64,000 bases of DNA from an uncultured Dokdonella sp. (GTDB lineage: Bacteria; Pseudomonadota; Gammaproteobacteria; Xanthomonadales; Rhodanobacteraceae): assembly GCA_964582225.1 (NCBI GenBank), contig CAZORA010000007.1:11558-75557 (forward strand), read 5' to 3'. Position 1 is the first letter of the stretch. Each line of letters begins with the position of its first letter. The translations under genes and the position numbers were made by a program. Under the pieces are notes generated by a model. The model was not told the DNA's origin and made no database searches. It was given only the letters and a program-made list of their open reading frames with translations. This document shows positions 6,975 through 31,991 of this stretch, piece by piece.

Positions 6975-7667
6975 TCAGTCGTAGTCCCACAGCACACGCA
7001 CCTTCTGCAGCCTCATGCCGGAACCGACGCAGGTGTTGAAGGTGGCACGCACCTCGTAGCTGCAGCGGGTGCTGTTCACCCAGCGCCCCGGACCGACATG
7101 CGCGTTCAGCCAGACTGGCCCGGGCGCATCGGCGGCGCTGGTGACCGGGCCGGCGAATCCCACCACGGTACGAAACGCGGGATCGGGATTGTTGGTGCGC
7201 TGGCAGATTTCCCATAGCGACACCTCGACGCCGGCCGTGGTGGACTCATCGACCGCCCACACGTCGATCCAGGTGATGCGGTGGTCGCTGGGAAACTCGA
7301 TCGCCGCATCGGCTACCCTGACCGGCGAGCCGGGTTTGCAGGACACGCTGGTGCTGCTGTCGAATGTCGTCAGCGCGCCCTGGCCGCGGAAGTGGAAATC
7401 CGGGCCGGCCACCGAAGTCCAGATCGGGTCGACCAACGGGTTGGGTGCCTGCGGGCTGGCGCCATCGCGGGCGAGGCGCGCAGCGAGCAGATCGCGATGA
7501 TCGAACGCGGGCGCCCGCCACACCTCATCGGTCAGCGGGTCGAAGCCGAGGGCGCGGATCTCGGCCGGGTCGGTGACCCGCACGTCGCCGGGCAGGGGAT
7601 CGGCCAGGGCCACCGTGCCCAGGGCCAGACCGGACAGGACGACCACAAGGGCCAGAGGGGTCTTCAT
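6975..7667 (-). CDS. Secreted hypothetical protein, paralog P3
   Basis: GAGGTG SD before MKTPLALVVVLSGLALGTVALA signal peptide (alternative start 7685 overlaps upstream stop as ATGA); 4 Cys in mature part; motif blocks shared with neighbours. Confidence 0.85.
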   Translation of the reverse strand: MKTPLALVVVLSGLALGTVALADPLPGDVRVTDPAEIRALGFDPLTDEVWRAPAFDHRDLLAARLARDGASPQAPNPLVDPIWTSVAGPDFHFRGQGALTTFDSSTSVSCKPGSPVRVADAAIEFPSDHRITWIDVWAVDESTTAGVEVSLWEICQRTNNPDPAFRTVVGFAGPVTSAADAPGPVWLNAHVGPGRWVNSTRCSYEVRATFNTCVGSGMRLQKVRVLWDYD

Positions 7668-7681
7668 CGTGGTCACCTCGT

Positions 7682-8272
7682 TCATGGCAGGTCGTGGTCG
7701 ATGTTGGTGTTGAACATGCCGCGGAAGATGCGGTCGGGAATGTCCGCCTCGATGAACACCTTCTGCACGTAGGACGTGCCGGTGGTGCAGGGCACGGTGC
7801 TGATGTCGAAGCGCACTTCGGCCCAGTAGCGGCAATCGAGGTTGACGGGTGCGTCGCCGACGGGCATGGAGCTGATGTAGTAGCCGTCGGCGTTCCCGTT
7901 CGGGATTGCGCTGGCCAGTTCCGTCGTGGTCGGGTTCAGCTCGTTCTGGGTCATGCAGCTCTTGACCACGCGGGTCGTTGCCGCGGGCGCATTGGAGGTG
8001 CGGCGCCCATACACGTTCACGAAGGCGATCCTGTAGCGGTCAGGCATCGTGAACGGATAGCGCACGATGTGTGGCGTGCCGCGTGTGGCGGCGTTCGTGC
8101 ACAGGTAGCCGCCGTTGGAATGGGTGAAGTCATCGGCCGTCTGCGCCGGTTGCCCGGCCACGCCGGCGATCTCGCGATACTCGCGGTTGTGGAAGATCAC
8201 GCTGTCGTTGGCCAGCGCGTTGGAGGCGAGCAGGCAGCCGGCGAGCGTCGTCATGGAGAGTGCGTTGCGCAT
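7682..8272 (-). CDS. Secreted hypothetical protein, paralog P2, with DRIFRGMFN tail
   Basis: AGGAG SD before MRNALSMTTLAGCLLASNALA signal peptide; 4 Cys in mature part. Confidence 0.85.
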   Translation of the reverse strand: MRNALSMTTLAGCLLASNALANDSVIFHNREYREIAGVAGQPAQTADDFTHSNGGYLCTNAATRGTPHIVRYPFTMPDRYRIAFVNVYGRRTSNAPAATTRVVKSCMTQNELNPTTTELASAIPNGNADGYYISSMPVGDAPVNLDCRYWAEVRFDISTVPCTTGTSYVQKVFIEADIPDRIFRGMFNTNIDHDLP

Positions 8273-8286
8273 GTTCAGGCTCCTGT

Positions 8287-8910
8287 TCATTGCCCGTGCT
8301 GCACGCGGATCTTGCGCACGGTCGAGGTGTCGCAGTTGCTGAACTCGACGTAGGCCCAATAGGTGCAGACATGGGCATCGGTGACCGGTTCGCCGGCCAC
8401 AGGCGTGCTCACCGTGAAGCTGCCGGCACTGGTTCCACTACTGATATCGGCGAGATTCTTGTTCACCGGCGCGCTGGCCGCACCGAGGTCGGGCAGGCAG
8501 GATTCGCGCAGGATCACCCGGATGTCGTTGGTGGCCGAAAAATCCTGCCCCCACATGCGGAAGAACTGAAGCTTGCGTCCGTGCGGAATGGGCAGGCGCG
8601 CATAGGCCCAGCGGCTGGACGCCGGTTCCACACACCAGAAGCTGGCGGTGTCCTGGTGGGTTGCGATCGGCAGCCCGTTGCCGCTGGAACGAAAATCCAC
8701 CCCCAGCACGTTGGTCCAAGTGACATCGGGCAGCATCTCGGCCGGCAGCAGCTCGGCTTCGGCGATCCCGGCATCGGCGTCGAACGCCCACGGTGCGGAC
8801 TCGGCGCTGGTCGAAATGGCCCCGCCGGGCGCCTGTTCATCCAGCGGTGGGGCCGCGCTGGCGACGCCCGTGAACAGTGCCAGGGCGATGGTCAAGCAGG
8901 TTCGTTGCAT
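8287..8910 (-). CDS. Secreted hypothetical protein, paralog P1
   Basis: GGAGA SD; signal peptide MQRTCLTIALALFTGVASA; 4 Cys in mature part; motif blocks shared with P2/P3. Confidence 0.85.
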   Translation of the reverse strand: MQRTCLTIALALFTGVASAAPPLDEQAPGGAISTSAESAPWAFDADAGIAEAELLPAEMLPDVTWTNVLGVDFRSSGNGLPIATHQDTASFWCVEPASSRWAYARLPIPHGRKLQFFRMWGQDFSATNDIRVILRESCLPDLGAASAPVNKNLADISSGTSAGSFTVSTPVAGEPVTDAHVCTYWAYVEFSNCDTSTVRKIRVQHGQ

Positions 8911-9202
8911 GATTGTCAGCTCTCCGGTTCAGGTTTCGCGATACGACGACCGACGTGGCGGGGAAGCCGCATCGCCGCGCGTCGATGGTGCAGCGCCGTT
9001 CGGCGATGCGATTGCGCCCGGCGCGCACGCGGCGCGGCCCGGATCGACCCATCTGGAAACCTACTAGCGCGAAATCGCGCGCAAACCAGACATGTCGTGC
9101 ACAACTGGATCGAGCGTGCGGGCCGGGCGCAGCGCCTCAAGCGCGTGTTCGGCATTCATCATTGCATCGCCATGCGGTGGCGATGTCTGCGCAAGACGCA
9201 CT

Positions 9203-10786
9203 CTATTGCCGCGCCAAGGCCTTGCGCAGAGAATCGAGCAGCGCGCCGTAGCGGCCCGCTCGCGCGGTATCTTGGCGGATCGGCTGGCGCACCTGGGTGG
9301 CGCTGGCCGTGCGTACGCTGCGTTCGGCTTCGAAGAAACGCAGGCAAGCCGGATCGAACGGCAGCGCGCAAAACTCGAGCAGGGCGCGCGTCTGGGCTTC
9401 CGTGTCAGCCACCAGCGCCTCGTAGGACTGCGCGCGGATATGCGCCGGATCACGCGCCTGCCAATGCTGCATGGTCTCGGCGTAATCGTGGAAACAGGCG
9501 ACCAGGTCGCCGAGGTCATAGCTGTATTCGTGACCGGCCCAGAATATCTGGCGGAAGCAGGACAGGCAGGTTTCCAGCGGATCGCGCCGGCAGTCGATGA
9601 TGTGCGCGCCCGGCAGCATGGCGCGGATGGCGCCAACCAGCATCCAGTTGCCGGGGGTCTTGTCGGTGAAACGCGGGCGCCGCTGGCGCCACTTGGCAGT
9701 GCGCGCGAGGTAATCCTCGCCGAGGCGCTGCCAGTCGGTCGGCGTGACGTCGGTCACCCAGGCCGGAAACGCCTTGCCGCGACGGCGCGATTCGGCGCCT
9801 ATCAGCATGCCCAGATCGGTCAGCTCGCTGCCGCCTTCCACTTCGGGGTGGGCGGCGAGGATCTGCTCGGTCAGCGTGGACCCCGAACGCGGCAGGCTGA
9901 CGACGAAGATCGCCTCGCTCCCCAGCGCCGCGTCGGGCGCGCGGGCCACGGGTCCATCGAAGGTCATCCTCAGCTGTCCGACCCAGGCATGGAAGGCAGC
10001 GGCATTCCACGGAAAGCGCTGGCGACCGAGACGATTCGCCGCGAGGTAGGCCGAGTAGGCGTCGGCGTAGCGCGCCGCATCCTCCAGCGCACGGGCGCGG
10101 GCAAAAGCCAGGCCGATGCGCTCATCCAGCGACAGGTCCTTGTTTTGGACGACCGTCTCCAGCGCCGCCAGATCGTCCTGCGTGAAACATAGCGACTTCA
10201 GATTGGCCAGACCCCACCAGGCGTGTCCAGAGGTGGGCTTGAGCGCGAGAAACTGCCGGTACTGGGCCGCCGAGGCGTCGCTGCGCCCCAGCATCATCAG
10301 CGCCTCGGCCAGCAGAAAATGCGCGGACTCGAGCGCCGGTTCAAGCTCGAGCGCGCGCCGCAGCGGCGTCAGCGAATCATCCAGGCGCGCCTCCAACTGC
10401 AGCAGCTTGCCAAGGTTGAACCACCCCGCGGCATCGCTCGGCGCAAGCTCACAGGCACGACGCAGCGTGGCTTCGGCGCCGGCCGCGTCGCCGAGGTCGG
10501 CCAGCAGGCGGCCGAGCTCGCCGTGCAGCGTAGGATTGTCCGGCAGGCGCTCGAGCGCCTGCCGCAGGGCAGCCGCAGCCGCAGCGCCCTGCCCCATTGC
10601 GCGCAGCGCCGCGGCGTGCGCCACGAGCAGGTCGACGTCATGGGGAGCCGCCCGCAGCGCCTCCGCAAGGCAGCGCTCGGCGCCGACAAAATTGCCCTGC
10701 GCGAGGAGCCGGCGCGCGAGCTGCAGCTGCCGCTGTCGATCCGCCGGCACGCCGGATGAGGCCACGGGGGAATCCGCCGGACTCAT
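9203..10786 (-). CDS. TPR-repeat-containing PAPS-dependent sulfotransferase
   Basis: N-terminal TPR-like helical repeats; 5'-PSB motif FVVSLPRSGSTLTEQIL, DKTP, 3'-PB motif RRDPLETCLS, VRTASATQVRQPI; start set at ATG 10786 after GGGGGAG. Confidence 0.92.
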   Translation of the reverse strand: MSPADSPVASSGVPADRQRQLQLARRLLAQGNFVGAERCLAEALRAAPHDVDLLVAHAAALRAMGQGAAAAAALRQALERLPDNPTLHGELGRLLADLGDAAGAEATLRRACELAPSDAAGWFNLGKLLQLEARLDDSLTPLRRALELEPALESAHFLLAEALMMLGRSDASAAQYRQFLALKPTSGHAWWGLANLKSLCFTQDDLAALETVVQNKDLSLDERIGLAFARARALEDAARYADAYSAYLAANRLGRQRFPWNAAAFHAWVGQLRMTFDGPVARAPDAALGSEAIFVVSLPRSGSTLTEQILAAHPEVEGGSELTDLGMLIGAESRRRGKAFPAWVTDVTPTDWQRLGEDYLARTAKWRQRRPRFTDKTPGNWMLVGAIRAMLPGAHIIDCRRDPLETCLSCFRQIFWAGHEYSYDLGDLVACFHDYAETMQHWQARDPAHIRAQSYEALVADTEAQTRALLEFCALPFDPACLRFFEAERSVRTASATQVRQPIRQDTARAGRYGALLDSLRKALARQ

Positions 10787-10992
10787 CAGCACTCCCCCGG
10801 CAGTCCTGCGCTGCAGCGCGCACCGCGCTCGATGTTGATTGTCGATTTCATGACTCACCCGCTGGCGGCGGTCGAACTCGGGTCCATCGCGACACTGTAG
10901 CAAGGCACGGCGTCGGCCATAGCCGCGCGGCTGATTCCCTTTCGGTGACGTCATCCATAGAATGAAAGTTCGCTCTGCATGAAAGGATGCAC

Positions 10993-12360
10993 ATGGCGGA
11001 TTCCGCGCTGCATGTGATCGTGCTTGCCGCCGGCGAGGGCAAGCGCATGCGCTCGAAGCAGCCCAAGATGCTGATGCCGCTGGCCGGCAGCCCCATGTTG
11101 GCGCACGTGCTGGCATTGGCGCGCCGGCTGCAGCCCGCGCGCATCCACGTGGTCTACGGCCACCGTGGCCGCGAGGTGCGCGCGGCGGTCACCGACCTGG
11201 CTGACCTCGACTGGGTCGAACAGGCGCAGCAGCTCGGCACCGGCCATGCGGTGATGCAGGCACTGCCGCAGATCCCCGATGCGGCGCGAGTGCTGATCCT
11301 CTACGGCGACGTACCGCTGATTCGTGTCGCCACCCTGTCGGCCCTGCTCGCGATCGACGCACCGCTCGCCGCCCTGATCACCCGACTCAGGGATCCTTCG
11401 GGCTACGGCCGCGTGCTGCGCGATGCAGACGGACGCATCCGCTCGATCGTGGAGGACCGCGACTGCAGTCCCGCCGAGCGCGCCATCTCCTGGATCAACA
11501 GCGGGATCCTGACGGCGAATGCGGCCCGCTTGCGCGCCTGGATTGCTCGCCTGACCAGCGCCAACGCCCAGGGCGAGTTCTATCTCACCGACATCTTCGA
11601 TGTGGCCAGCGCGGCCGGCGAGCCCGCTGCGGCCTGCGAATGCGGCGATCCGAACGAAGTGCTGGGCGCCAATGATGCCTGGCAGCTGGCAACGCTCGAG
11701 CGCATCTGGCAGCGGCGCCGGGCGATGGAGCTGGCGATGGCGGGAGTGCGCTTCGCCGACCCCGGCCGCTTCGACGCGCGCGGTGAGATCGTGGTTGGGC
11801 GAGACGTCTCGATCGATGTGGACGTGATCCTTGAAGGTCTGGTAGAGCTGCAGGACGATGTCCATGTTGGCCCTTACTGCCATATCCGCAACTCAACCCT
11901 GGCCGCTGGCACTGTGCTGCGCTCCCACTGCAACCTGGACGGGGTCATCACCCATGGTCCCTGCGAGATCGGCCCGTTCGCGCGGCTGCGGTCGGGCACC
12001 GAGTTGGCCGCCGGCGTGCGGGTCGGCAACTTCGTCGAGCTCAAGCAGACCAGCATCGGCCGCAACAGCCAGGTCAATCACCTGAGCTATCTCGGCGACA
12101 CCAGCCTGGGCGCCGACGCCAATATTGGCGCCGGCACCATTACCTGCAACTATGACGGCGCCGAAAAGCACCGCACGATCATCGAGGACGGCGCCTTCAT
12201 CGGCTCCAACAGCGCGCTGGTCGCGCCGGTGCGGATCGGCTGCAACAGCACCATCGGCGCCGGTTCGGTGATCGTCAGCGACGCGCCGGAAGGCGAGCTG
12301 ACCCTGGCCCGCGCGCGTCAGCAGACGGTCGCAGGCTGGCGCCGCAAGCGCGCGCGCTGA
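10993..12360 (+). CDS. glmU: Bifunctional UDP-GlcNAc pyrophosphorylase/glucosamine-1-P acetyltransferase
   Basis: [29 protein letters not shown], hexapeptide repeats, [11 protein letters not shown]. Confidence 0.97.
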
Positions 12361-12387
12361 GTGCCGGCGGCCCGACCGGAGGATCCG

Positions 12388-13677
12388 ATGCAGGTAGAGC
12401 TGCCCGAGCTTGAGCACGCGCGGCTTGCGATCATCGGCCTCGGCTACGTCGGCCTGCCGCTCGCGGTCGGCTTCGGCAGACGCCGCCCGACTCTGGGCTT
12501 CGATATCAGCGCCGCACGCATCGCCGAGCTCGAGGCGGGCCACGATCACACTCTGGAAGTGTCGACGGCGGAGCTGGCCGCCGCTCGCGAGCTGCGCTTC
12601 TCTGCCGATCCCGCCACGCTGGTTGGCCAGGATGTCTTCATCGTCAGCGTGCCGACGCCGATCGACGACGCCAGGCGGCCCGACCTCGCTCCGCTCAAGG
12701 CCGCTAGCCGCACGGTCGGACGCGCAATGCGCCGCGGTGGCGTGGTGATCTTCGAGTCCACCGTCTACCCCGGCGCTACCGAAGAGGTCTGCGTGCCGAT
12801 CATCGAGCGCGAATCCGGCCTGCGTTACCGCGTCGATTTCCACGCCGGTTACAGCCCCGAACGCATCAACCCCGGCGACCGCGAGCATCGCCTCGAGACG
12901 ATCTGCAAAATCACTTCCGGCTCGACTCCCGCGGCGGCCGACTTCGTGGATGCCCTGTATCGCAGCGTGATCAGCGCGGGCACTCACAAGGCCTCCAGCA
13001 TTCGCGTGGCCGAGGCGGCCAAGGTGATCGAGAACACCCAGCGCGATCTCAACATCGCTCTGATCAACGAGCTGGCGCTGATCTTCCATCGCCTTGGCAT
13101 CGACACCGGCGACGTGCTGGCGGCGGCGGGCACCAAGTGGAACTTCCTGCCGTTTCGACCTGGCCTGGTCGGCGGCCACTGCATTGGCGTCGACCCGTAT
13201 TATCTGACCCACAAGGCGCAGCAGGTCGGCTACCACCCGGCGGTGATCCTCGCCGGTCGGCGCATCAACGACGACATGGGCGCGCACGTCGCGCAGCGGG
13301 TGATCAAGCTCCTGACCCGACGCCGCATCCTTGTCGCGGACGCCCGGGTGCTGATTCTCGGCCTCGCGTTCAAGGAGAACTGCCCCGACCTGCGCAACAC
13401 CCACGTGATCGACGTGATCCGCGAACTCGAGAGCTACCAGGCGCAGGTCGCGGTGTGCGACCCGTGGGTCGAGCCGGGAGAGGCGCGGCGCGAATACGGG
13501 ATCGAACTCGTCGCCCTGCCGCAGCGAGCGGAGTACGACGCCGTCGTGCTCGCCGTCGCGCACCGCGAGTTCGTCGCCCTCGGCGCCGCTGGCGTGCGCG
13601 CGCTGACCCAGCCCGCAGGCGTGGTGTTCGACGTCAAGCAGGCGCTGCCACGCGAGGCGGTCGACGACCGCCTGTGA
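12388..13677 (+). CDS. tviB: Nucleotide-sugar (UDP-HexNAc) 6-dehydrogenase, TviB/WbpO family
   Basis: GLGYVGLPLA, ESTVYPG, SPERINPGD, GGHCIGVDPYYL, FKENCPDLRN; GGAGG SD. Confidence 0.85.
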   Translation: MQVELPELEHARLAIIGLGYVGLPLAVGFGRRRPTLGFDISAARIAELEAGHDHTLEVSTAELAAARELRFSADPATLVGQDVFIVSVPTPIDDARRPDLAPLKAASRTVGRAMRRGGVVIFESTVYPGATEEVCVPIIERESGLRYRVDFHAGYSPERINPGDREHRLETICKITSGSTPAAADFVDALYRSVISAGTHKASSIRVAEAAKVIENTQRDLNIALINELALIFHRLGIDTGDVLAAAGTKWNFLPFRPGLVGGHCIGVDPYYLTHKAQQVGYHPAVILAGRRINDDMGAHVAQRVIKLLTRRRILVADARVLILGLAFKENCPDLRNTHVIDVIRELESYQAQVAVCDPWVEPGEARREYGIELVALPQRAEYDAVVLAVAHREFVALGAAGVRALTQPAGVVFDVKQALPREAVDDRL

Positions 13678-13692
13678 ATCCCAGGAGTCCGC

Positions 13693-14718
13693 ATGCGCAT
13701 CCTCATTACCGGCGCCGCCGGGTTCATTGGCTCGGCCCTGAGTGCATACCTGCTCGCCCGCGGCGACGAAGTGCTCGGCTATGACAACCTGAACCCCTAT
13801 TACGACCCGCGGCTCAAGCGCGCGCGGCTGGAGCGGCTGGTTTCGCAGGCAGGCTTCCGCTTTGTCCAGGCCGGCATCGAGGATCGCGCTGCGCTCACCG
13901 AGAGCTTCAGCAGGTTCCGTCCGCAGCGGGTGGTCAATCTCGCCGCGCAGGCTGGCGTGCGCTACTCGTTGGTCAACCCGCACGCCTATGTCGAGAGCAA
14001 CCTGGTCGGTTTCACCAACGTGCTCGAGGCCTGCCGGCACGGCGAGGTCGAGCACCTGGTCTACGCCTCGTCGAGCTCGGTCTACGGCGCGAATCGCAAG
14101 CTGCCGTTTTCCGTGCAGGATTCGGTCGACCATCCGGTCAGCCTTTACGCGGCAACCAAGAAGGCCAACGAGCTGATGGCGCACACCTACAGCCATCTTT
14201 ACGGCCTGCCGACCACCGGGCTGCGCTTCTTCACGGTCTACGGCCCGTGGGGGCGACCGGACATGGCGCTATTCCTGTTCACGCGCAAGATCCTCGCCGG
14301 CGAGCCGATCGAGGTCTTCAATCACGGCCGCCACAGCCGCGACTTCACCTACATCGACGATATCGTCGAGGGCGTAGTGCGCACACTCGACCGGGTGGCA
14401 GCGCCGAACGCGGACTTCGACCCCATCAAACCCGATCCGGCCACTTCGAGCGCGCCGTACCGGGTCTACAACATCGGCAGCCATCGACCGGTGGAGCTCT
14501 CGCGCTATATCGAGCTCATTGAGGATTGCCTCGGCCGGCGCGCCGAGAAAAAGCTGCTGCCGATGCAACCCGGCGACGTGCCCGACACCTACGCCGACGT
14601 CGAGGAGCTGATCCGCGACACTGGCTACGCACCGAGCACGCCGGTCGAGCTGGGCGTGCGCCGCTTCATCGATTGGTATCTCGAGTTCTACGCCGCGCCG
14701 CGGAGCAGCTCGGATTGA
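13693..14718 (+). CDS. NAD-dependent epimerase, UDP-glucuronate 4-epimerase-like
   Basis: [43 protein letters not shown]. Confidence 0.92.
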
Positions 14719-14767
14719 CGTGCTTCGCCCGAAGGCGTCACGAAGAAGCTGCACGAGCGGCGGGGTG

Positions 14768-14795
14768 AAAAAGGGCCGGCCCGCGGCCCCGGCCT
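14768..14795 (-). terminator. Probable intrinsic terminator for cysteine synthase gene
   Basis: On minus strand AGGCCGG...CCGGCCC followed by TTTTT, between convergent genes. Confidence 0.55.
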
Positions 14796-14857
14796 GAAGT
14801 CAGACCCAGGCACCACGGGCCGGCTCTCCGGGGAAGCGGAACCGGCTCGGCAGATCG

Positions 14858-15901
14858 TCAAGCTGCCTGTCGGGCAGCGGGCGTCGAGGGGAAGGCGCGG
14901 TCCAGCCAGTCGGCCACCGGCAGGCCGCGCTCGCGCAGGAACGCCGGGTTGTAGAGTTTGCGCGCGTAGCGCGCGCCACCATCGCAAAGCAGGGTAACGA
15001 TCACGTGACCCGGACCGAGCTCCCGCGCCAGACGAATCGCACCAGCCACGTTGACACCCGAGGATCCGCCAAGGCACAGCCCTTCCTCGGCCGCCAGTCC
15101 ATGCAGCAACGGCAGCGACTCGGCGTCGGGGATGCTCCACGCGGTATCGATCCGCGCATCCGCGAAATTGGCGGTGACCCGGCTCGAGCCGATGCCTTCC
15201 GTGATGGAATTGCCTTCGGCGACGAGCTCTCCGTGCAGAACCTGATTGGCCAGCGCCGAGCCGGCCGGATCGGCGAGGGCAACGCGCACATCCGGTCGAT
15301 GCGCTTTGAGCCCTTCGGCAACTCCGGCGAGGGTGCCGCCAGTACCGGCCGAGCAGACGAATCCGTCGATCTTGCCGGCGGTTTGCTGCCAGATTTCCTG
15401 AGCGGTGGTAGCGACGTGGAAATCGCGGTTGGCGGTGTTGTCGAACTGGTTGGCGAACCAGGCACCGTTCGGTTCGCTGGCTGCGCGGTCCTCGGCCAGC
15501 GCGCGGGCGACATGCACATAGTGATGTGGGTCGCGGAACGGCACTGCCGGGACGAGACGCACTTCGGCGCCGGTGAGACGCAGCGCGTCGATCTTCTCCG
15601 GGCTTTGCGTCTGTGGCATCACGATGACCGTCCGGTAGCCGCGGCTCGCACCGACCAACGCGAGACCGATGCCGGTGTTACCGGCGGTACCCTCGACCAG
15701 CAGCCCGCCCGGGCGCACCTGCCCGCGACGTTCAGCATCGTTCAGCATGCCGAGCGCGGTGCGATCCTTGATCGAGCCGCCGGGATTCAGAAACTCGGCC
15801 TTGCCAAGGATTTCGCAGCCCGTGAGCTCGGAGGCGCGCCGCAGCCGCAGGAGCGGCGTGTGACCCACGGCGGCGGAAAAGTCCTGGAGTACGTCGACCA
15901 C
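14858..15901 (-). CDS. cysK: Cysteine synthase (PLP-dependent)
   Basis: KAEFLNPGGSIKDR, EGTAGNTGIGL, GTGGT, EGIG; GTG start after GAGAGG (alternative 15922). Confidence 0.88.
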   Translation of the reverse strand: MVDVLQDFSAAVGHTPLLRLRRASELTGCEILGKAEFLNPGGSIKDRTALGMLNDAERRGQVRPGGLLVEGTAGNTGIGLALVGASRGYRTVIVMPQTQSPEKIDALRLTGAEVRLVPAVPFRDPHHYVHVARALAEDRAASEPNGAWFANQFDNTANRDFHVATTAQEIWQQTAGKIDGFVCSAGTGGTLAGVAEGLKAHRPDVRVALADPAGSALANQVLHGELVAEGNSITEGIGSSRVTANFADARIDTAWSIPDAESLPLLHGLAAEEGLCLGGSSGVNVAGAIRLARELGPGHVIVTLLCDGGARYARKLYNPAFLRERGLPVADWLDRAFPSTPAARQAA

Positions 15902-22848: not shown

Positions 22849-22891
22849 CCCGCTCCGCTCCGATCGCTACCGCGGTAGCGCGAGAATTTCA

Positions 22892-23185
22892 TCAAAGATC
22901 GTCGCCGCCTTTGCCGAGGTCGTCGTCCACTTCGGCCGCGGCCCACTCGAGCGCCTCGCGCTCCGCGCGCTCGCGCTCCTGGCGATCGATCTCCTCGATC
23001 ATCGCCTTGTTGACGGTACCTTCGGCGATTTCGCGCAGTGCGACGACGGTCGGCTTGTCGTTCTCGTCGTCGACCGTCGGCGTTGCGCCGCGCGCGATCT
23101 GGCGCGCACGCTTGGTGCCCATCAGCACCAGCTCGAAGCGGTTGTCCACCACCTTGAGGCAATCTTCCACCGTGATCCTGGCCAT
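22892..23185 (-). CDS. rpoZ: RNA polymerase omega subunit
   Basis: [26 protein letters not shown]. Confidence 0.98.
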
Positions 23186-23387
23186 CGCTGTCTCCACTGC
23201 AAAATCATTGGCCAATCATGGCCTTAAGGTTTGTGATTATACTGTCGCAAATTTGTGCGTTGCAATGTGCCCGCAGAGCGTGCTCGGCACGTGCAGCGAC
23301 GGCTGCGCCAAGCCGGCGTTTCGCGTAGCCTTGCGCTTCGGCGCCGACCCCCATCCGGCGCCCGGGACAAGCAGAAAAAAGACCCAC

Positions 23388-24206
23388 ATGCGCCTCCTTC
23401 GCCAGCCCCGCGACGCCCGCGTCGTCCTCCTCGCCATCGGCTTCGCGCTGCTCGCCGGCTGCACCATCGCGCCGCCGCGGACGGACGATCCTTGGGAGGG
23501 CTTCAACCGCAAGGTACACGTTTTCAATGATGCCGCCGACAAGGCGGTGATCCGGCCGCTGGCGGTCACCTACCGCAAGCTCACCACGCGCACCATGCGG
23601 CGCCTGATCACCAATTTCTTCGCCAACATCCAACTGCCGATTTCGATCATCAACGACTTGCTGCAGGGCGCCCCCGTTGATGCGGCGCACAATACCGCAC
23701 GCATGGCGGTGAACAGCACCGCCGGGCTGCTCGGCCTTTTCGACCCTGCGAGCGAGATGAATCTGGCGGCGCGGAGAACCGACTTCGGTGTCACCCTGGC
23801 GCGCTGGGGGCTGCCAGAGGGACCCTATCTGGAGCTGCCGTTGGTCGGTCCGACCACTCCGCGCGACGTCTGGCGGCTGCCGGTCGACAACCGCTTCAGC
23901 CCGCTCGGCTGGTACGCGCGCGAGCACGATTTCACCCTGCATGCGGAATATCTGCCGAACTTCCTGTATTTGGTCACCCTGCGCGCATCGGCCATCGACG
24001 CCGAATCCTTGCTGGAAGGCGTCTACGACCCCTATCTGTTCTACCGCGACGCGTACCGCCAGCGTCGGCTGCACGAGATCTACCGGGGCAACCCGCCGGC
24101 CGAGCTGATCGAGCGCCTGCAGGGCGCCGACGACGAGGATATTGACGACCTGCTCGAGCAGCAGCGCGCCTGGGAACGGGAGCAGAAAAAACCGCAAGCA
24201 CACTGA
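23388..24206 (+). CDS. mlaA: MlaA/VacJ outer-membrane lipoprotein
   Basis: Lipobox LLAGC, DPWEGFNR, NSTAGLLGLFDPA, DFGVTLARWG, GPYLELPLVGPTT, DPYLFYRDAY. Confidence 0.94.
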   Translation: MRLLRQPRDARVVLLAIGFALLAGCTIAPPRTDDPWEGFNRKVHVFNDAADKAVIRPLAVTYRKLTTRTMRRLITNFFANIQLPISIINDLLQGAPVDAAHNTARMAVNSTAGLLGLFDPASEMNLAARRTDFGVTLARWGLPEGPYLELPLVGPTTPRDVWRLPVDNRFSPLGWYAREHDFTLHAEYLPNFLYLVTLRASAIDAESLLEGVYDPYLFYRDAYRQRRLHEIYRGNPPAELIERLQGADDEDIDDLLEQQRAWEREQKKPQAH

Positions 24207-24254
24207 GTCGGAGGGGTCGGCAGCAGCGCGCAGCCAACGTCCGACAGCGTGCGC

Positions 24255-24572
24255 TCAGGAGGCGGCGTCCGCCGAGATTCCGAGCAGACCCTCGACCTGA
24301 CAGAGCTGCGCCAGCGCGTGCAGCGCCGCGGGTGCCCGCTCCACCTGCAGCCGCATGCCGCGTGCTGCGGCGCGGGCCGCCCAGGCGAGCAATAGCGCCA
24401 GCGTAGCGCTGTCGATGTCCTCGAGACCTGCGGCGTCGAGCTTCAGCTCGCCGCCACGCCCGAGCAGCTCCTCGCTGCGCGCCAGCGCGGCCTTCACTCC
24501 GGCAAAACCCGCCGTTCCGCTCAGGCGCACGCGATCCGGCGCGAGGCGTTCGATTTGCAGCGTGCCGCTCAC
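24255..24572 (-). CDS. mlaB: STAS-domain protein MlaB
   Basis: IDSATLALL STAS motif; start overlaps mlaC stop. Confidence 0.85.
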   Translation of the reverse strand: MSGTLQIERLAPDRVRLSGTAGFAGVKAALARSEELLGRGGELKLDAAGLEDIDSATLALLLAWAARAAARGMRLQVERAPAALHALAQLCQVEGLLGISADAAS

Positions 24573-25213
24573 GAGCCCTTCGGAGCCTCCCCCTGCATGC
24601 CCTCGAGCGCCGCCCGACCCTGGCTCTCGAGACGCACGATCAGGGCGTCGAGCCCGGTCTTCTGGATCTCCGCGCCGACCTGGTTGCGGTAATTGGTGAT
24701 GTAGGAAATGCCCTCGATGATCACATCGTAGGCCTTCCAGTCGCCGTCGCGGGTCTTGCGGAACGCGTAGTCGACCGCAATCGTCTTGCCGTCGTCCAGC
24801 ACCACCTGGGTGCGCACGATCGTGCGCTTGTCGTTGGTCTCGCCCTTGAACGGCAGCACGCGCACCTTGCCGCGGGTGTAGTTCAGCAGACCTTCCGCAT
24901 AGCGGTCGACCAGGGAGTCATAGAAGGCCTTGGCGAAGCGCGCGCGCTGCTCGGGTGTGGCGCTGCGCGCGTACTGGCCGAGCACCAGGATCGAGGCGTA
25001 GTCGATGTCGAAATGCGGCAGGAACACATCGTCGATCAGCTCGATCAGCCGCCGGTGGTCCTGCTGCAATTCGGCCTTGCGACCGCTGACCGCCTGATCA
25101 AGCTCGTCGGCGATCTTCTGCACGATCTGATCGGGCGCGGCGGGCGCCGCGCGGACCGGCGCCGCGGCCAGGGCCAGCAGGGCGGCAAAAGCACAGACCA
25201 GAATGCGCAACAT
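24569..25213 (-). CDS. mlaC: Phospholipid-binding periplasmic protein MlaC
   Basis: Signal peptide; WKAYDVIIEGISYITNYRNQ. Confidence 0.94.
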   Translation of the reverse strand: MLRILVCAFAALLALAAAPVRAAPAAPDQIVQKIADELDQAVSGRKAELQQDHRRLIELIDDVFLPHFDIDYASILVLGQYARSATPEQRARFAKAFYDSLVDRYAEGLLNYTRGKVRVLPFKGETNDKRTIVRTQVVLDDGKTIAVDYAFRKTRDGDWKAYDVIIEGISYITNYRNQVGAEIQKTGLDALIVRLESQGRAALEGMQGEAPKGS

Positions 25214-25222
25214 GACGGCTCC

Positions 25223-25735
25223 TCAATGATGGGTTTCTGCGTCCGACGAGTCCGGCGGCGGGTTTTTGCTGCCGGAAGACGAGCCGCTGCCGACCAGGAA
25301 CTTGCCGATCAGATCCTCGAGCTGCATCGACGACTGGGTCAGCACGAAGCGGTCGCCGTCCTTGAACATGTCGGGCGAACCGCCGGGCTGGATGCCAACG
25401 TACTGGTCGCCAAGCAAACCGCTGGTGAATATCGAGGCCGAGGAGTCGTCGGGGATGTCCCTGTAGCGCTCGTCGATGGCGAGTTCGACCTCGGCTTCGA
25501 GCTGCTGTGGATCGAGCGCGATGGACTGTACCGAGCCGATCCGCACGCCCGCGAGCTTGACCGGCGCACGCAGCTTCAACTGGCCGATATTGCCGAAGCG
25601 CGCGGTCAGGGTATAGCTCGGCCCCTGGCTGAAGTTCGCCACCGAGGTGGTCTGCGTGGCGAGATAGGCGAGCGCCGCGAATCCGAGAACGATGAACAGG
25701 CCGGTACCAACCTGAAAGGAGCGTCGCTGGGTCAT
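25223..25735 (-). CDS. mlaD: MCE protein MlaD
   Basis: N-terminal TM, FGNIGQLKLRAPVKLAGVRIG, TSGLLGDQYV. Confidence 0.95.
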   Translation of the reverse strand: MTQRRSFQVGTGLFIVLGFAALAYLATQTTSVANFSQGPSYTLTARFGNIGQLKLRAPVKLAGVRIGSVQSIALDPQQLEAEVELAIDERYRDIPDDSSASIFTSGLLGDQYVGIQPGGSPDMFKDGDRFVLTQSSMQLEDLIGKFLVGSGSSSGSKNPPPDSSDAETHH

Positions 25736-25848
25736 GACATGAATCCGCTGAACTGAAGCGCAGCGCGCGGGCTCCGCGCGGTCGGATGGCTTCGCGTGGC
25801 CCCGCCGACAGGCGCGGCGGGGGACGGCTGGATGAATCGGTGGGTCAC
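25732..25848 (-). CDS. Putative 38-aa small ORF between mlaE and mlaD
   Basis: GAGGAG 8 nt before GTG; 39 codons; TGA overlaps mlaD ATG (ATGA). Confidence 0.35.
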   Translation of the reverse strand: MTHRFIQPSPAAPVGGATRSHPTARSPRAALQFSGFMS

Positions 25849-25867
25849 GATATCGACTCCTCGCGCA

Positions 25868-26638
25868 TCACATCAGGAACGCGGTCATCACGAAGTCGAG
25901 CGCGAGCACCACGATCGACGAGGCAACCACGGTGCGCGTGGTCGCATAGGCCACGCCTTCGCTGGTGGGCGGCGTGGTATAGCCCTGGAACACCGCGATT
26001 AGCGCCACGACGGCGCCGAAAGCGACGCTCTTCCAGACGCCATTGATCACGTCCTTCCAGACGTCGACGCTGGAAGTCATGTTGGACCAGAAGCTGCCGT
26101 TGTCGAGGCCAAGCCAGGACACGCCGACCAGGTGCGCGCCGAAGATGCCGAGCGCATTGAAGATGCAAGCGAGCAGCGGCATCGCGATCAGCGCACCCAG
26201 AAACCGCGGTGCGGCGACGTAGGCCAGCGGATCGACCGCCATCATCTCCATCGCCGCGAGCTGGTCGGTCGCCCGCATCAGGCCGATCTCGGCGGTGATC
26301 GAGGTGCCGGCGCGCCCGGCAAAGAGCAGCGCCGTCACCACCGGACCCAGCTCGCGGTAGAGCGAGAGCGAGACCACGGTACCGAGCGCTGCGGTGCCGC
26401 CGAAGATCGACAGCACGTAATAGAGCTGCAACCCCAGCACCATGCCCACGAAAAGCCCGCTGATCATGATGATGACCAGGCTCATCGCGCCGGCGAACCA
26501 CACCTGGCGAACGGTCTCGCGGAAATAGCGCAAGCTGCCCGGCAGCGCGCCCAGGATCTGCAGCAGAAACAGGCCGCAGGCGCCCACCGGGGCCAGCAGG
26601 TCGCCGAAGCTCGCACTGAAACGGCGCGCCGCGCTCAC
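25868..26638 (-). CDS. mlaE: ABC permease MlaE
   Basis: RELGPVVTALLFAGRAG, EIGLMRATDQL, GVAYATTRTVV. Confidence 0.96.
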   Translation of the reverse strand: MSAARRFSASFGDLLAPVGACGLFLLQILGALPGSLRYFRETVRQVWFAGAMSLVIIMISGLFVGMVLGLQLYYVLSIFGGTAALGTVVSLSLYRELGPVVTALLFAGRAGTSITAEIGLMRATDQLAAMEMMAVDPLAYVAAPRFLGALIAMPLLACIFNALGIFGAHLVGVSWLGLDNGSFWSNMTSSVDVWKDVINGVWKSVAFGAVVALIAVFQGYTTPPTSEGVAYATTRTVVASSIVVLALDFVMTAFLM

Positions 26639-27474
26639 GAGAGCCGCTCCGCCGCCGGCGGAAAGCCGAGATCCGTCGCGTAGTCCCGCGCCGGATACTG
26701 GAACGGCACGGGCCCGTCCGCCTCACCGCCGAAGAACTGCCGGGTCCAGGGCGAATCGCCCTTCGCCAGCTCCTGCGGTCGGCCGCTCGCCACGATCCGC
26801 CCGCCGGCCAGCAGATAGACGAAGTCCGCCACCCGCGAAACCGCCGAAAACTCGTGGCCGACCAGGATGCTGGTGATGCCCAGCGTATCGTTCAGGGTGC
26901 GAATCAGCTTGACCACCTGATTGAGCGCGATCGGGTCGAGACCGACGAAGGGCTCGTCGTAGAGGATCAGCATCGGATCGCGCACGATCGCGCGAGCGAG
27001 AGCGACGCGCCGCGCCATGCCGCCCGAGAGCTCGTTCGGCATCAGCTCGGCGGCGCCACGCAGGCCGACCGCCTGCAGCTTGGTGAGCACGATGTTGCGC
27101 ACCAGCTCCTCGGGCAGATCGAGGTGCTGGCGCAGCGGAAAAGCGACGTTTTCGAACACGCTGAAGTCGGTCAGCAGTGCCGAATTTTGAAACAGATAGC
27201 CGATCTTCTCGCGCAACCCGAACAGGTCCTCGCGCCTGAGCCGCGGCACGTCCTGGCCGTCGATGCGGATGCTGCCGGCATCCGGCCGGCGTTGCCCGGT
27301 GATGTGGCGCAGCAGGGTGGTCTTGCCGCAGCCGCTCGGCCCCATTACCGCGGTCACCCGGCCGCGCCGGACGTCGAGATCGACGCCCTCGAAGATGGTC
27401 TTGCGACCGAGCACCGTGTGCAGGCCGCGCACTTCGATCAGCACGGGCGCGTCCGCAGTCGAGGTTTGGCTCAC
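26635..27474 (-). CDS. mlaF: ABC ATPase MlaF
   Basis: GPSGCGKT, LSGGMARRVALARA, LYDEPFVGLDP, GPVPFQYP. Confidence 0.95.
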   Translation of the reverse strand: MSQTSTADAPVLIEVRGLHTVLGRKTIFEGVDLDVRRGRVTAVMGPSGCGKTTLLRHITGQRRPDAGSIRIDGQDVPRLRREDLFGLREKIGYLFQNSALLTDFSVFENVAFPLRQHLDLPEELVRNIVLTKLQAVGLRGAAELMPNELSGGMARRVALARAIVRDPMLILYDEPFVGLDPIALNQVVKLIRTLNDTLGITSILVGHEFSAVSRVADFVYLLAGGRIVASGRPQELAKGDSPWTRQFFGGEADGPVPFQYPARDYATDLGFPPAAERLS

Positions 27475-27543
27475 GGCATCCGATCTCGCGGCTGGAAGGA
27501 ATTCAGGGCGCGCGGCGCGGCGCCGAACTCGCAGGCCGCCAGC

Positions 27544-28194
27544 TTAGCCGAGGCCTGCCGAATCCCGCCAGCCGCGCACCTCCCCGGCCAGCAGATCGCG
27601 CAGCAGCGCTTCATTGCGGGCGAGCTGGGTCGCAGTGCGCAGGCGACGTGCGGAGACGATCGAGCGCAGGTCGCCGAGCGCGTCGGCAAACTCGTCGTTG
27701 ATCACCAGATAGTCGAACTCGTGGGCGTGGGCGACTTCCTCGCAGGAGGCGGTCAGGCGCCGATTGATGGTGGCCGCGTCATCGGACGCGCGAGTGCGCA
27801 AGCGTCGCTCGAGCTCGACGCGCGAAGGCGGCAGGATGAACACGCTGAGCGCCTCGGGCAGCGCCGCGCGCACCTGACGGGCGCCCTGCCAGTCGATTTC
27901 GAGCAGCACGTCGCGGCCCTGCGCCAGCAGCGGCTCGACCGCGCTGCGCGAAGTGCCATAGCGATGCCCGAACACCTCGGCGTGCTCGAGGAACAGGTTC
28001 TGCTCGACCATCCGCGCGAACACCCCCTCGTTGACGAAGTGGTACTGCTCGCCGTCGCGATCCTGCGGCCGCAACGGCCGCGTGGTGTGCGAGATCGACA
28101 GCGCAATCTCCGGCTCGCGCTCGAGCAGGGCGTGCACCAGGCTGGTCTTGCCGGTGCCCGACGGCGCCGAAATGATGTAGAGGGTTCCGCTCAC
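27544..28194 (-). CDS. gmk: Guanylate kinase
   Basis: SAPSGTGKTSL, SHTTR, YGTS, LEIDWQGARQV. Confidence 0.97.
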   Translation of the reverse strand: MSGTLYIISAPSGTGKTSLVHALLEREPEIALSISHTTRPLRPQDRDGEQYHFVNEGVFARMVEQNLFLEHAEVFGHRYGTSRSAVEPLLAQGRDVLLEIDWQGARQVRAALPEALSVFILPPSRVELERRLRTRASDDAATINRRLTASCEEVAHAHEFDYLVINDEFADALGDLRSIVSARRLRTATQLARNEALLRDLLAGEVRGWRDSAGLG

Positions 28195-28284
28195 GCAGCA
28201 TCACCGCGGGTGAAAAACAAAATGGAAACAGGCGTTCCGGCGCGCGTCAACCGCTGCCGCGATGCCGACCGCGACCGACGCCGG

Positions 28285-29142
28285 CTACTCAAGATTCTGC
28301 ACCTGCTCGCGCATCTGCTCGATCAGCACCTTGAGCTCGACCGCGGCCGAGGTGGTCTCGGCGTCGGCGGCCTTCGAGCCGAGGGTGTTCGCCTCGCGGT
28401 TGAATTCCTGCATGAGGAAGTCGAGGCGCCGCCCGATCGGCTCGGCGAGGCCGGCGATGCGGCGCGCCTCGGCAATGTGGGCGTCGAGTCGATCGAGCTC
28501 TTCGTCGACATCCAGACGCTGCAGCTGCAGCACGACCTCCTGCTCCAGTCGACCCGGATCGAGCGGCTGGCGCAGCTCCGCCAGGCGCGCGTCGAGCCGC
28601 GCCCGCAGCGCCTGGCGAAGCGCCGGCAGATGCGCGCGCACTGCGCCGGTGATGCGCTCGATCGCGTCCAGGCGTTCGCCGAGAAAAGCCCCCAGGCGCG
28701 CGCCTTCACGCTCGCGGGTGGCGATCAGTTCGTCGAGCCCGCGGTCGAGCAGGTCCAGCGAGGCGTCACTCAGGCCCTGGCGATCGAGCGGCTCCTCGAG
28801 CAGCAGCCCCGGCCAGCCGAGCAGGCTGGTGAAATCCACCTGCAGCACCGGAAATTTCGCCGCCAGCAGATGCGCGGTCTCGGCCAGGCGCGCGGTGAGA
28901 GCCGCGTCGAGCGTGATTGCGGCGGCGTCCGCGCGCGGCTTCCAGCGAAGACTCAGATCGACTTTGCCGCGACCAAGGCGCGAGCTCACCCGCTCGCGCA
29001 GCGCCGGCTCGAGCGCGCGCAGCTCGTCCGGCAGGCGCAGGCCGAGCTCGAGCCAGCGGTGGTTGACCGAGCGCAGCTCGAAGCTCAGCGAGCCGCGTGC
29101 GGTATCGGCCTCGACGCTGGCGTAGGCGGTCATGCTGCGCAA
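28285..29142 (-). CDS. yicC: YicC family endoribonuclease
   Basis: [46 protein letters not shown]; start TTG 29142 or ATG 29133. Confidence 0.95.
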
Positions 29143-29236
29143 TGGAGGGCTCCCGCAGGCGAATCCCGCGCAAGGTAGCACAGCGCGCGGCCCGTCCGCG
29201 GCTAGACTAGGCGGCTGTTTCGAAGCCGGATCCGAG

Positions 29237-29968
29237 ATGCCCATTCCGACCCGTCCAAGCGGCCGCGAGGCCGACCAGCTGCGTCCGCTCATGATCGAGC
29301 GCCACTACACCCACCACGCCGAAGGCTCGGTGCTGATCGGCTGCGGTGGCACCCGCGTGCTGTGCACGGCCAGTGTCGAGGAAAAGGTGCCGCCCTTCCT
29401 GCGCGGCAAGGGTGAGGGATGGGTCACGGCGGAATACGGCATGCTGCCGCGCGCCACCGGCCAGCGCACTCAGCGCGAGGCGGCGCGCGGTGGCCAGGGC
29501 GGACGCACCATGGAGATCCAGCGCCTGATCGGCCGCGCGCTGCGCGCCTGCGTCGACCGCCAGGCGCTGGGTGAGCGCACGATCACGCTCGACTGCGACG
29601 TGCTGCAGGCCGACGGCGGCACCCGCACCGCCTCGATCACTGGCGCCTACGTGGCCCTGGTCGACGCGGTGCGCTGGCTGCTCGAGCGCCGACTGCTCAA
29701 GCGCGATCCGATCCACGGCGCCGTCGCTGCGATCTCGGTCGGCATCTGGCAGGGCTTGCCGGTGCTCGATCTCGACTACGCCGAGGACTCCACTTGCGAC
29801 ACCGACATGAACGTGGTGATGAATGACGGCGGTGGCTTCATCGAGCTGCAGGGTACGGCCGAAGGTCACGCCTTCCGGCGCGAGGAAATGGACGCCCTGC
29901 TGCAGCTCGCGACGGACGGCATCGAAGCCCTGATCGCCGCGCAGCGCAGCGCCCTGGCGCGGGACTGA
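29237..29968 (+). CDS. rph: Ribonuclease PH
   Basis: [38 protein letters not shown]. Confidence 0.98.
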
Positions 29969-29973
29969 CGCGC

Positions 29974-30573
29974 GTGCGCCGGGTCGTCGTCGCCAGCGGC
30001 AACGCCGGCAAGATCGCCGAGATGCGCGCGATCCTCGCCGGCAGCGGGTTCGAACTGGTGGGGCAGCACGAGCTCGGCATCGTCGAGGCGGAGGAAACCG
30101 CGCCGACCTTCATCGAGAACGCGCTGGCCAAGGCCCGCCACGCCTCGCGCGCGGCGCGCCTGCCCGCGCTCGCCGACGACTCCGGCCTGTGCGTGGACGC
30201 GCTCGGCGGCGCCCCCGGCATCCGCTCGGCGCGCTACGCGGGCCGCCACGGCGACAGCGCAGCGAACATCGCGCGCCTGCTCGGCGAGCTCGAAAAGTGC
30301 GGACCTGGAAGCCGGCGCGCGCATTTCCACTGCAGCATCGTGCTGCTTTCCGATCCCGACGATCCCGCGCCGCTGCTGGCCGAAGGGCGCTGGAACGGAA
30401 GCATCCTCCTGGCGCCGCGCGGCAGCGGCGGGTTCGGCTACGACCCAGTGTTCCTGCCGGCCGACGGCGACGGACGCAGCGCCGCCGAGCTCGACTGCGC
30501 GAGCAAGAACCGCCTGAGTCACCGCGCGCTGGCGCTGGCGCGGCTGCTGGAGCTGCTGGCGGCGGCACACTGA
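29974..30573 (+). CDS. rdgB: dITP/XTP pyrophosphatase
   Basis: ASGNAGK, ADDSGL, PGIRSARYAG, GFGYDPVF, KNRLSHR. Confidence 0.96.
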   Translation: MRRVVVASGNAGKIAEMRAILAGSGFELVGQHELGIVEAEETAPTFIENALAKARHASRAARLPALADDSGLCVDALGGAPGIRSARYAGRHGDSAANIARLLGELEKCGPGSRRAHFHCSIVLLSDPDDPAPLLAEGRWNGSILLAPRGSGGFGYDPVFLPADGDGRSAAELDCASKNRLSHRALALARLLELLAAAH

Positions 30574-30743
30574 AGGTGTTATGCCCTCCACGCATGCGCT
30601 TGAATGCGTGACGCACTTGGCGAATCGGCCGTGAAATGACGCACGATGCGACCGTCAGGCGTGCCGCTTAAACCGCTTGCAGTCATGTGCCAGACTACCG
30701 CCGCGGCCAGTTCGGCCGCACGATGCTTCACGGAGATCATCCT

Positions 30744-31325
30744 ATGTTTCGCAAATCAACGCTCAGCGCCGCACTCGCAGTCGCACTTCTCACGGTCGGC
30801 GGCTCGGCCTGCGCAGAACCTTCCTCGAGCGGCTCGCAGATGAACGCCGCACCCATCGTTTTCCAGCACCTGCCGGGCGCCGACAACGCGCTCGAAAACG
30901 GCAACGCGCCACTGGCAGGCACGCACTACTATTTCGTTCCAGCCGGCGGGTTCGTGCGCCGTGACAGCATCAATTCGCTGGCGAACGTTGGCCTTGGCTG
31001 CATCGGCAGCGATGTGAATGCGACCCTGAACGCCGACGTGCAGCTCCCCGCAGGCGCCGAGATTCTCGGGGTACGGATTTTCTACCATGCGCCCAATGCG
31101 GGAGACCAAATTCGCGGCTGGTTCACGAGCTATGACGGTGCCGGCGGCTATACCGACCTGATCAGCGCATCGACCACCCAGACCGGCGGCTACTTCAGCG
31201 AATACTTCACGCCCGGCACGACGTTCAGCATCGATCCCGTCACATTCGCCTATGCCCTCAACACCCGCTTCTTAGGTTCGACCGATGTCGAGATGTGCGG
31301 CATGCGCGTTTTCTGGCAAGACTGA
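30744..31325 (+). CDS. Secreted hypothetical protein, paralog P4
   Basis: GGAGA SD; signal peptide MFRKSTLSAALAVALLTVGGSACA; motif blocks shared with P1-P3 and P5. Confidence 0.85.
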   Translation: MFRKSTLSAALAVALLTVGGSACAEPSSSGSQMNAAPIVFQHLPGADNALENGNAPLAGTHYYFVPAGGFVRRDSINSLANVGLGCIGSDVNATLNADVQLPAGAEILGVRIFYHAPNAGDQIRGWFTSYDGAGGYTDLISASTTQTGGYFSEYFTPGTTFSIDPVTFAYALNTRFLGSTDVEMCGMRVFWQD

Positions 31326-31337
31326 CGGGAGATCGCC

Positions 31338-31991
31338 ATGAACAATCATCAAATCCGGCGGCGATCGACACTACAGCCGCTGGGCTGGGCGCTCGCTGGT
31401 CTACTCGCATCGGCCAGCGTCGGCGCGGCGCCAGCCGAAATGCTTTCCTCGGCCGAAGGCCGAGCTGCAGCGGCGCCGCCGACCAGCCAGGTCGCAGTCG
31501 ACGCCAGCGCCCTCGACGCAATAACGCCCGCCGCGCTGACCTGGAATTACCTCAACGTGGCCGGAAGCATCTTCCAGGACCGTCAGGATACGGACACCTT
31601 CTATACCGATCTTGGGGATGGCTGCGTGTATCTGACGGCCGGCAATCGCCTGGAGACCAAGCTGATGCTGCCGGAGGGCGCCTACGTTCGTTACGTGCGC
31701 GCCTTCTTCTACGACACGAGCCCTCAGGATCTCTACGTCTGGCTCGTGAAGTTCGATGGCGCAGGCATGAATCAGGATCTCAGATATGTGACTTCGAGCG
31801 GTGACAGTGGCTACGGGACGACCTTGAGCAGTCTCGTCAACTACACGGTCGATCACTACGAGAGCCCGCTGTCTCTGGTGATGGGATCGTACGTTCATGA
31901 CTCCAGTCTGCAGCTCTGCGGCGTCAGGATTGCCTACTACACGGCGCAACAGATGCTGGACGATACGATCTTCAAAGACGACTTCGACTGA
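31338..31991 (+). CDS. Secreted hypothetical protein, paralog P5, ending DTIFKDDFD
   Basis: GGGAG SD; signal peptide ending ASVGA; clear similarity to P4 (GC, LPxGA, DGAG, CGxR). Confidence 0.85.
   Translation: MNNHQIRRRSTLQPLGWALAGLLASASVGAAPAEMLSSAEGRAAAAPPTSQVAVDASALDAITPAALTWNYLNVAGSIFQDRQDTDTFYTDLGDGCVYLTAGNRLETKLMLPEGAYVRYVRAFFYDTSPQDLYVWLVKFDGAGMNQDLRYVTSSGDSGYGTTLSSLVNYTVDHYESPLSLVMGSYVHDSSLQLCGVRIAYYTAQQMLDDTIFKDDFD

Follow-up and report, generated by a model that had tools for sequence, protein, structure and literature searches.

This locus raises the question of whether five small, apparently exported proteins, encoded in two separate clusters of an uncultured Dokdonella sp., belong together, and what such proteins might do. 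The stretch analysed, referred to here as the window, comprises 64,000 nucleotides of contig CAZORA010000007.1 and holds one cluster of three genes (P1-P2-P3, a trio) and one of two (P4-P5, a pair). Both clusters appear to belong to a single unnamed family that recurs as ordered gene cassettes, in most of which one gene carries a short peptide motif, hereafter the tag. We tentatively propose, with a confidence just short of even, that these cassettes of exported jelly rolls resembling carbohydrate-binding modules (CBMs) form hetero-oligomers that are docked on the cell surface by the single tagged subunit. The genes and the tags read from the sequence are listed below by position in the window, with signal peptides called by eye.

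P1, 8287..8910, minus strand: trio position A; 207 amino acids with a signal peptide, an N-terminal extension of ~45 amino acids and a four-cysteine domain predicted to be a jelly roll (residues ~63-207); untagged.
P2, 7682..8272, minus strand: trio position B; 196 amino acids with a signal peptide, next to no N-terminal extension, a four-cysteine domain and a C-terminal variant of the tag.
Tag variant on P2, 7712..7735, minus strand: DRIFRGMF.
P3, 6975..7667, minus strand: trio position C; 230 amino acids with a signal peptide, an extension of ~60 amino acids containing a conserved TDPAE-x-x-A-x-GF motif, and a four-cysteine domain; untagged.
Tag-like stretch of 10 codons, 6738..6767, minus strand: directly 3' of P3; no intact gene encloses it.
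P4, 30744..31325, plus strand: gene 1 of the pair; 193 amino acids with a two-cysteine domain; untagged.
P5, 31338..31991, plus strand: gene 2 of the pair; 217 amino acids with a two-cysteine domain, predicted to be a jelly roll, and a C-terminal tag.
Tag on P5, 31962..31988, plus strand: DTIFKDDFD.

A preliminary description of this DNA had given the coordinates of the five open reading frames (ORFs), quoted conserved blocks from each and counted 4, 4, 4, 2 and 2 cysteines in mature P1 to P5. The coordinates and counts were right when the ORFs were re-read, and every block was present to the letter; the inventory was incomplete, however, lacking the tags of P2 and P5 as well as a second trio outside the window. 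The mature cysteines lie at residues 93, 138, 182 and 193 of P1; 58, 106, 147 and 162 of P2; 110, 155, 202 and 213 of P3; 86 and 185 of P4; and 96 and 194 of P5.

Judged by profile comparison, P1-P5 are one unnamed family. Pairwise phmmer searches joined P1, P2 and P3 at E-values of 1e-9 to 0.03 and P4 and P5 at 1e-13; between the clusters the best E-value was 0.009 (5 sequences), which barely links them. Alignment of the trio and pair profiles with hhalign gave a probability of 96.1 (E 2.8e-9, 132 columns). A hidden Markov model (HMM) built from two-cysteine members only, part of them retrieved by the trio profile, matched 38 of 39 trio domains at E<1e-3, showing that a model of one cluster finds the other. 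This HMM (38 rows) placed the 8 family ORFs at the top ranks among the 24,573 ORFs of the genome. The trio profile matched 724 representatives (50%-identity clusters) at E<=0.001 and 275 at <=1e-10 among 1.84 billion, as well as 52 of 301 genomes sampled from the order. The preliminary description had recognised no named family; indeed, Pfam and NCBIfam name none of the five, and Pfam gave 0 convincing matches over sets of 39 and 38 members. Among named relatives, P1 is closest to a hypothetical protein of Dokdonella sp. (75% identity).

The family genes occur in ordered cassettes, and the own genome contains a second intact trio outside the window:

Second A-B-C trio, C15:46413-48472 (L001:6414-8473): same order as P1-P3; 43-62% identical to P1-P3.

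Of 41 near genomes, 7 contained relatives of P1, which almost always stood in trios, and 6 contained relatives of P5, for the most part in pairs; arrays of 1-6 family genes and single genes also exist. In a tree built from 13 trios (7 genomes), sequences grouped by gene position, also with the tails removed (support of 100/98 for B and 87/54 for C, with A in two parts), and position changed only 2 times in total, against a mean of 18.9 after shuffling. This grouping indicates that the trio duplicates and moves as a unit. The preliminary wording of "diversified tandem arrays" is thus less exact, since each position forms its own lineage, and its suggestion of subunits of a heteromeric structure is favoured. 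A and C have conserved N-terminal extensions that B lacks.

The tag follows the motif D-x-I-F-x-x-G-F, with the form D-x-I-F-x-x-G/D-F-D in P5 and a variant in P2. Its distribution was surveyed in 45 clusters, 14 of which reach the edge of a locus or contig and may be incomplete. All 24 trios (15 genomes) were untagged-tagged-untagged, with the tag on the middle gene B; the trios are related by descent and do not represent 24 independent events. Among 17 two-gene rows the tag was on gene 2 in 13 by pattern and in 2 by eye, and on gene 1 in 2 (one of them truncated), with double tags in 0 of 17; one of the 13, counted as a pair, was one gene interrupted by a stop (G104:C14) and was dropped. In the one quartet, genes 2 and 4 were the tagged ones, and the remaining three rows were lone genes. 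When 149 representatives were typed by profiles lacking the tail, 14 of 17 B-type proteins had the tag by pattern and the other 3 had variants recognised by eye, compared with 0 of 21 C-type proteins.

The tag extends beyond this family. In the own genome, 37 of 14,100 ORFs of at least 100 amino acids end in the motif, versus 0-1 in 20 shuffles, and 11 ORFs carry it elsewhere, including N-terminally and between domains. Two genes have it directly after an apparent signal peptide:

C8:75176-76927: tag directly after an apparent signal peptide.
C22:33892-35649: tag directly after an apparent signal peptide.

In five relatives of the family, all second genes, the tag sits inside the loop before the last strand. 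The loop, N-terminal and interdomain positions together show that a terminal position is not required, and insertion in a loop argues against a membrane anchor that is cleaved off and is in keeping with a docking peptide. The 20 tagged proteins scanned were mostly exported peptidases and other enzymes, chiefly hydrolases, with both Sec-type and Tat-type precursors, and none had an NCBIfam model over the tag. One-tag pairing also occurs outside the family: an untagged DUF1800 gene adjoins a tagged DUF1501 gene with a Tat signal (C6:61678-64972, L195). A multiheme cytochrome-like protein ends in the tag as well (C4:115842-117683, L076); docking by the tag at the surface, if it occurs, would place this protein there.

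In acidobacterial relatives the place of the tag is taken by an SLH domain. Of 26 relatives chosen, for the most part the longer ones, 15 had one C-terminal SLH, and the tag was found in 0 of 31 SLH rows; P1-P5 and the own genome had no SLH match (PF00395). The family domain was present in 33 of 71 mainly acidobacterial loci, often in arrays, and in Acidobacteriota three trios and one quartet have one SLH on every member. According to the available part of PMC12285257, single SLH domains (SlpA, LysBT1) form three-prong trimers. The family domain also ends exported fibre-like proteins of 400-580 amino acids with VGIG-type repeats (L057, L060, L066, L067, L069), for which there was no Pfam match in the four scanned and no PDB sequence match for two. 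Trimeric phage cement proteins are among the structural neighbours (7dou of KHP40, Z 9.1, root-mean-square deviation (rmsd) 3.1, 116 residues aligned), with a weak profile match to 7eel of Pam1 (E 0.017); in the part of PMC9698820 at hand, such proteins are trimeric and an N-terminal arm reaches under the next monomer. By analogy, the SLH, fibre and cement hints favour a trimer.

If the tag docks, it would need a partner, and the own genome offers a candidate for an S-layer protein:

NpdA-like ORF, C13:3180-4688 (L194): 503 amino acids with a signal peptide; directly after gspD and two genes before a peptidyl-prolyl isomerase (PPIase) gene.

Contig C13 holds only gspD of the gsp cluster. The ORF had one plasmid match, a Comamonas 'cell surface protein' (29% identity over 77%) in the same gspD-to-PPIase context. 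The accessible portion of PMC10765051 describes NpdA as an S-layer protein of ~52 kDa encoded downstream of a gsp cluster and listed in Dokdonella and Sedimenticola, and the C13 ORF is likely a protein of this type.

Tag and NpdA-like ORF largely go together in the 301 genomes. The tag pattern was present in 170 (its reverse, as a control, had 1 match in all) and the ORF in 212; 163 genomes had both, 7 the tag only, 49 the ORF only and 82 neither, counts that kinship among the genomes inflates and that overstate independence. All 86 genomes with at least 5 tags encode the ORF. In the taxonomic family of our genome it was found in 9 of 9 tag-positive versus 1 of 36 tag-negative genomes, and in another family (f2) a single genome of 46 (G156) has tag or ORF. 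The jelly-roll protein family occurred in 48 of 170 tag-positive versus 4 of 131 tag-negative genomes. In 43 of 45 genomes picked for their SLH loci, a shorter tag pattern matched 0-4 times and no NpdA-like ORF was matched. The other two are a Sedimenticola bin from an outside lineage, which combines 8 tags with an NpdA-like ORF and family members, and the Thermoanaerobaculia bin G353 described below.

The family domain is predicted to adopt a CBM-like (galactose-binding-like) jelly-roll fold. Models of the P1 and P5 domains were confident, with a predicted local distance difference test score (pLDDT) of 92.7 and 91.4, and had identical strand order. P1 matched 2zew (Z 11.6, rmsd 3.5, 129 aligned) and 2w5f (Z 11.4), and P5 matched 7ay3 (Z 11.6, rmsd 2.8, 118 aligned), 2cdo (11.2) and 2zew (11.1). 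Both models matched the same CBM entries over the same target ranges at <=16% identity; many of these matches were tied, which allows the fold class to be inferred and not the function. A lectin or adhesin activity is suggested by the models. Across the 140 of 149 representatives that span all four cysteine columns, 116 keep four, 21 have lost the first and fourth together and 3 have lost one. This joint loss points to disulfides 1-4 and 2-3 and, together with the two models, bears out the disulfide-stabilised beta-sandwich of the preliminary description. A C1q/TNF fold, our first guess, was less favoured: CBM-type folds rank above it, TNF ligands stood low in the Foldseek lists (TM 0.38-0.48), and no C1q/TNF Pfam profile matched P1-P5 or the 39 and 38 members. 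Folding back of the tag as a strand of its own domain was likewise unsupported by the monomer model of P5, in which the tail has a pLDDT of 45-58.

In the mechanism that we propose, the subunits would very probably be exported by Sec and form disulfides, and they probably assemble as a hetero-oligomer; that this is a trimer, either A+B+C or 2:1, we put at an even chance. The tag would, with good probability, act as a non-covalent docking peptide and not as a cleaved anchor. Its partner is perhaps the NpdA-type S-layer, which the neighbouring type II system would secrete, an assignment about which we are more doubtful than confident. The tagged subunit would bring the complex out through the type II system and dock it onto the S-layer. 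The exposed face may bind glycans, with mixed subunits giving combinatorial specificity, a step we regard as evenly poised. More broadly, Dokdonella-like and related bacteria might possess a general display system, in which a mobile peptide of nine residues, one for each complex, serves as the plug by which exported enzymes and complexes attach to an NpdA-type S-layer; the cassettes would then be mix-and-match heterotrimeric lectins, parallel to C1q A/B/C with another fold, using one plug or three single SLH domains. We consider this extension doubtful.

Several points weigh against the proposal. Pairs, including P4-P5, and at least one bounded single tagged gene (G225) show that three different subunits are not obligatory. 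The trimer hint from the fibre-like relatives is based on a trimeric state that we presume from repeat motifs, and trimeric fold neighbours score no higher than CBMs. The best structural matches, CBM6, CBM16, CBM22 and CBM36, are monomeric modules, and no sugar-binding residues were identified in the family. The swap for SLH speaks for envelope anchoring and not for surface exposure, and SLH in diderms may hold proteins in the periplasm. As to the S-layer, the C13 ORF was assigned from context, size and the 29% Comamonas match and not from an NpdA alignment; 49 genomes have the ORF and no tags, and 7 have 1-4 tags and no ORF, in a sample subject to the kinship mentioned above. A Thermoanaerobaculia bin (G353, L134) has 16 tags and SLH proteins and no NpdA-like match with this query, which counts against the S-layer as the sole reader of the tag.

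Alternatively, the tag could be an export signal for type II secretion and not an anchor. The hetero-oligomer would then fold in the periplasm, exit on its tagged subunit and be released or bound elsewhere, and the link to NpdA would reflect the gsp cluster. This is consistent with the two gspD-type loci of the genome, one of them directly upstream of the NpdA-like ORF, and with the prevalence of hydrolases, from both Sec-type and Tat-type precursors, among tagged proteins. Short terminal strands are read, through strand addition, by pilin-tip proteins of type IV filaments (PMC13533445, available in part). The rule of one tag per cassette fits export and docking equally well. Against an export signal, SLH, a binding module, replaces the tag on the same domain, and f2 genomes are mostly tagless (tags in 1 of 46) although type II secretion is common in this order. 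We regard an export signal as unlikely.

Two further explanations concern how the subunits are arranged. They may be separate monomers or homotrimers, of which only the tagged one is held at the surface while the others are free or periplasmic, the cassette being kept for co-regulation. Each domain does model as a complete sandwich on its own, CBM-like modules usually act alone, and single genes exist alongside arrays of up to six; but the fixed order, the position lineages and the single tag in 24 of 24 trios across several families, with no untagged or doubly tagged trio among them, are hard to obtain by co-regulation, making this improbable. Alternatively, the products could build an ordered filament or lattice, as base, shaft and tip or as a cement-like coat of the S-layer, in which B would be the anchor and the extensions of A and C would serve either as propeptides or as arms that link subunits. 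The conserved extensions on A and C and their absence from B would suit such an arrangement, as would the cement proteins whose N-terminal arm reaches under the next monomer. However, no strand is missing from the domain models, no chaperone, usher or other neighbour is common to the 20 loci, and each type has a single gene copy with no sign of a major subunit, so that we deem a filament or lattice very unlikely. The preferred reading remains a hetero-oligomer docked by its one tagged subunit.

The genes in the window are compactly arranged, with gaps of 12-14 nucleotides within both clusters and a purine-rich site of the GGAG/GAGG type upstream of each start, P1 to P5. Promoter and terminator scans gave results at chance level. 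Judging from the translations, the trio is flanked by what we take to be atpC and a tetratricopeptide repeat (TPR)-sulfotransferase-like gene, and the pair presumably by rdgB-like and hemW-like genes; no neighbour gene was common to all cassettes in 20 loci and three regions of the own genome. The guanine-plus-cytosine content over P4-P5 (30744-31991) is ~0.61 compared with 0.70-0.73 in the flanks, a pattern as for an inserted cassette. Downstream of P3, the minus strand at 6738-6970 has an ATG and, in a different frame, the tag-like stretch; this may be the remains of a fourth gene that had a tag. Reading P2 (LAGC at residues 10-13) and P4 (Cys23) as lipoproteins was discarded, as relatives lack a cysteine at the lipobox position and keep the later A-x-A site (by eye). 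Elsewhere in the genome, a decayed P1-like remnant with an in-frame stop (C15:27402-27656, L018) lies just upstream of genes that we assume to be rpmB-like and rpmG-like. A natural protein (P0073) has two family domains in tandem with a single tag; longer fused forms numbered 0 among 7,993 candidates, which is weak evidence.

Of these results the fold class is known, and what is new is the recurring ordered trios, the one-tag-per-cassette rule, the loop insertion, the SLH swap and the S-layer candidate. A literature search, whose coverage lacked most subscription papers, found no description of the tag or of the one-tag cassette arrangement. The tag matters beyond these genes, as it is found on exported enzymes and in 170 of the 301 genomes. 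The cassettes are its cleanest test bed, offering a single tagged subunit beside one or two without a tag, natural loop variants, the SLH swap and a candidate NpdA-like partner. If the proposal is true, it would represent an undescribed way for Gram-negative bacteria to decorate an S-layer, and the tag, small and portable, could be used for surface display; operon-encoded heterotrimeric lectin-fold adhesins would be unusual in bacteria.

Among known systems, CBM6, CBM16, CBM22 and CBM36 share the whole-domain jelly-roll fold of the P1 and P5 models (Z 11-11.6 over 118-133 residues). Unlike them, the family has no Pfam CBM match (the five proteins and the 39 and 38 members) and <=16% identity, and its PDB sequence profiles gave no CBM; P1-P5 are single-domain proteins with no enzyme domain attached, encoded by stand-alone genes in ordered cassettes, and the family has two conserved disulfide pairs. 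By language-model features (0.80, 0.81), DUF6623 (PF20328) comes closest among named clusters; its structural comparison (TM 0.53/0.69) fell below the bar of the tool, and its Pfam model matched no family member and no ORF of the genome. The cement proteins of Pam1 (7eel) and KHP40 (7dou) and the Bdellovibrio MAT fibre tips, as far as the accessible text of PMC10769870 goes, are small beta-sandwiches that trimerise at a surface or fibre tip, and the family domain ends fibre-like proteins. The known ones are homotrimers, however, and the family genes lack phage context (PHROGs gave 1 weak match in 38) and encode signal peptides outside any capsid module. With SlpA and LysBT1, as described in the excerpt consulted, the acidobacterial relatives share one SLH per chain, behind the family domain, whereas P1-P5 have none and a single tag per cassette instead. 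The NpdA system resembles ours in that the C13 ORF, of similar size and with a signal peptide, lies directly downstream of gspD and that Dokdonella is among the npdA holders; the available passages of PMC10765051 contain no docking tag or S-layer-associated lectin-fold complexes. Finally, like PEP-CTERM, IPTL-CTERM, GlyGly-CTERM and LPXTG, the tag is a short motif that ends dozens of unrelated exported proteins. It differs from these tripartite sorting signals in having no transmembrane helix or basic tail, as read directly from the tails, and in occurring also at N termini, between domains and within a loop.

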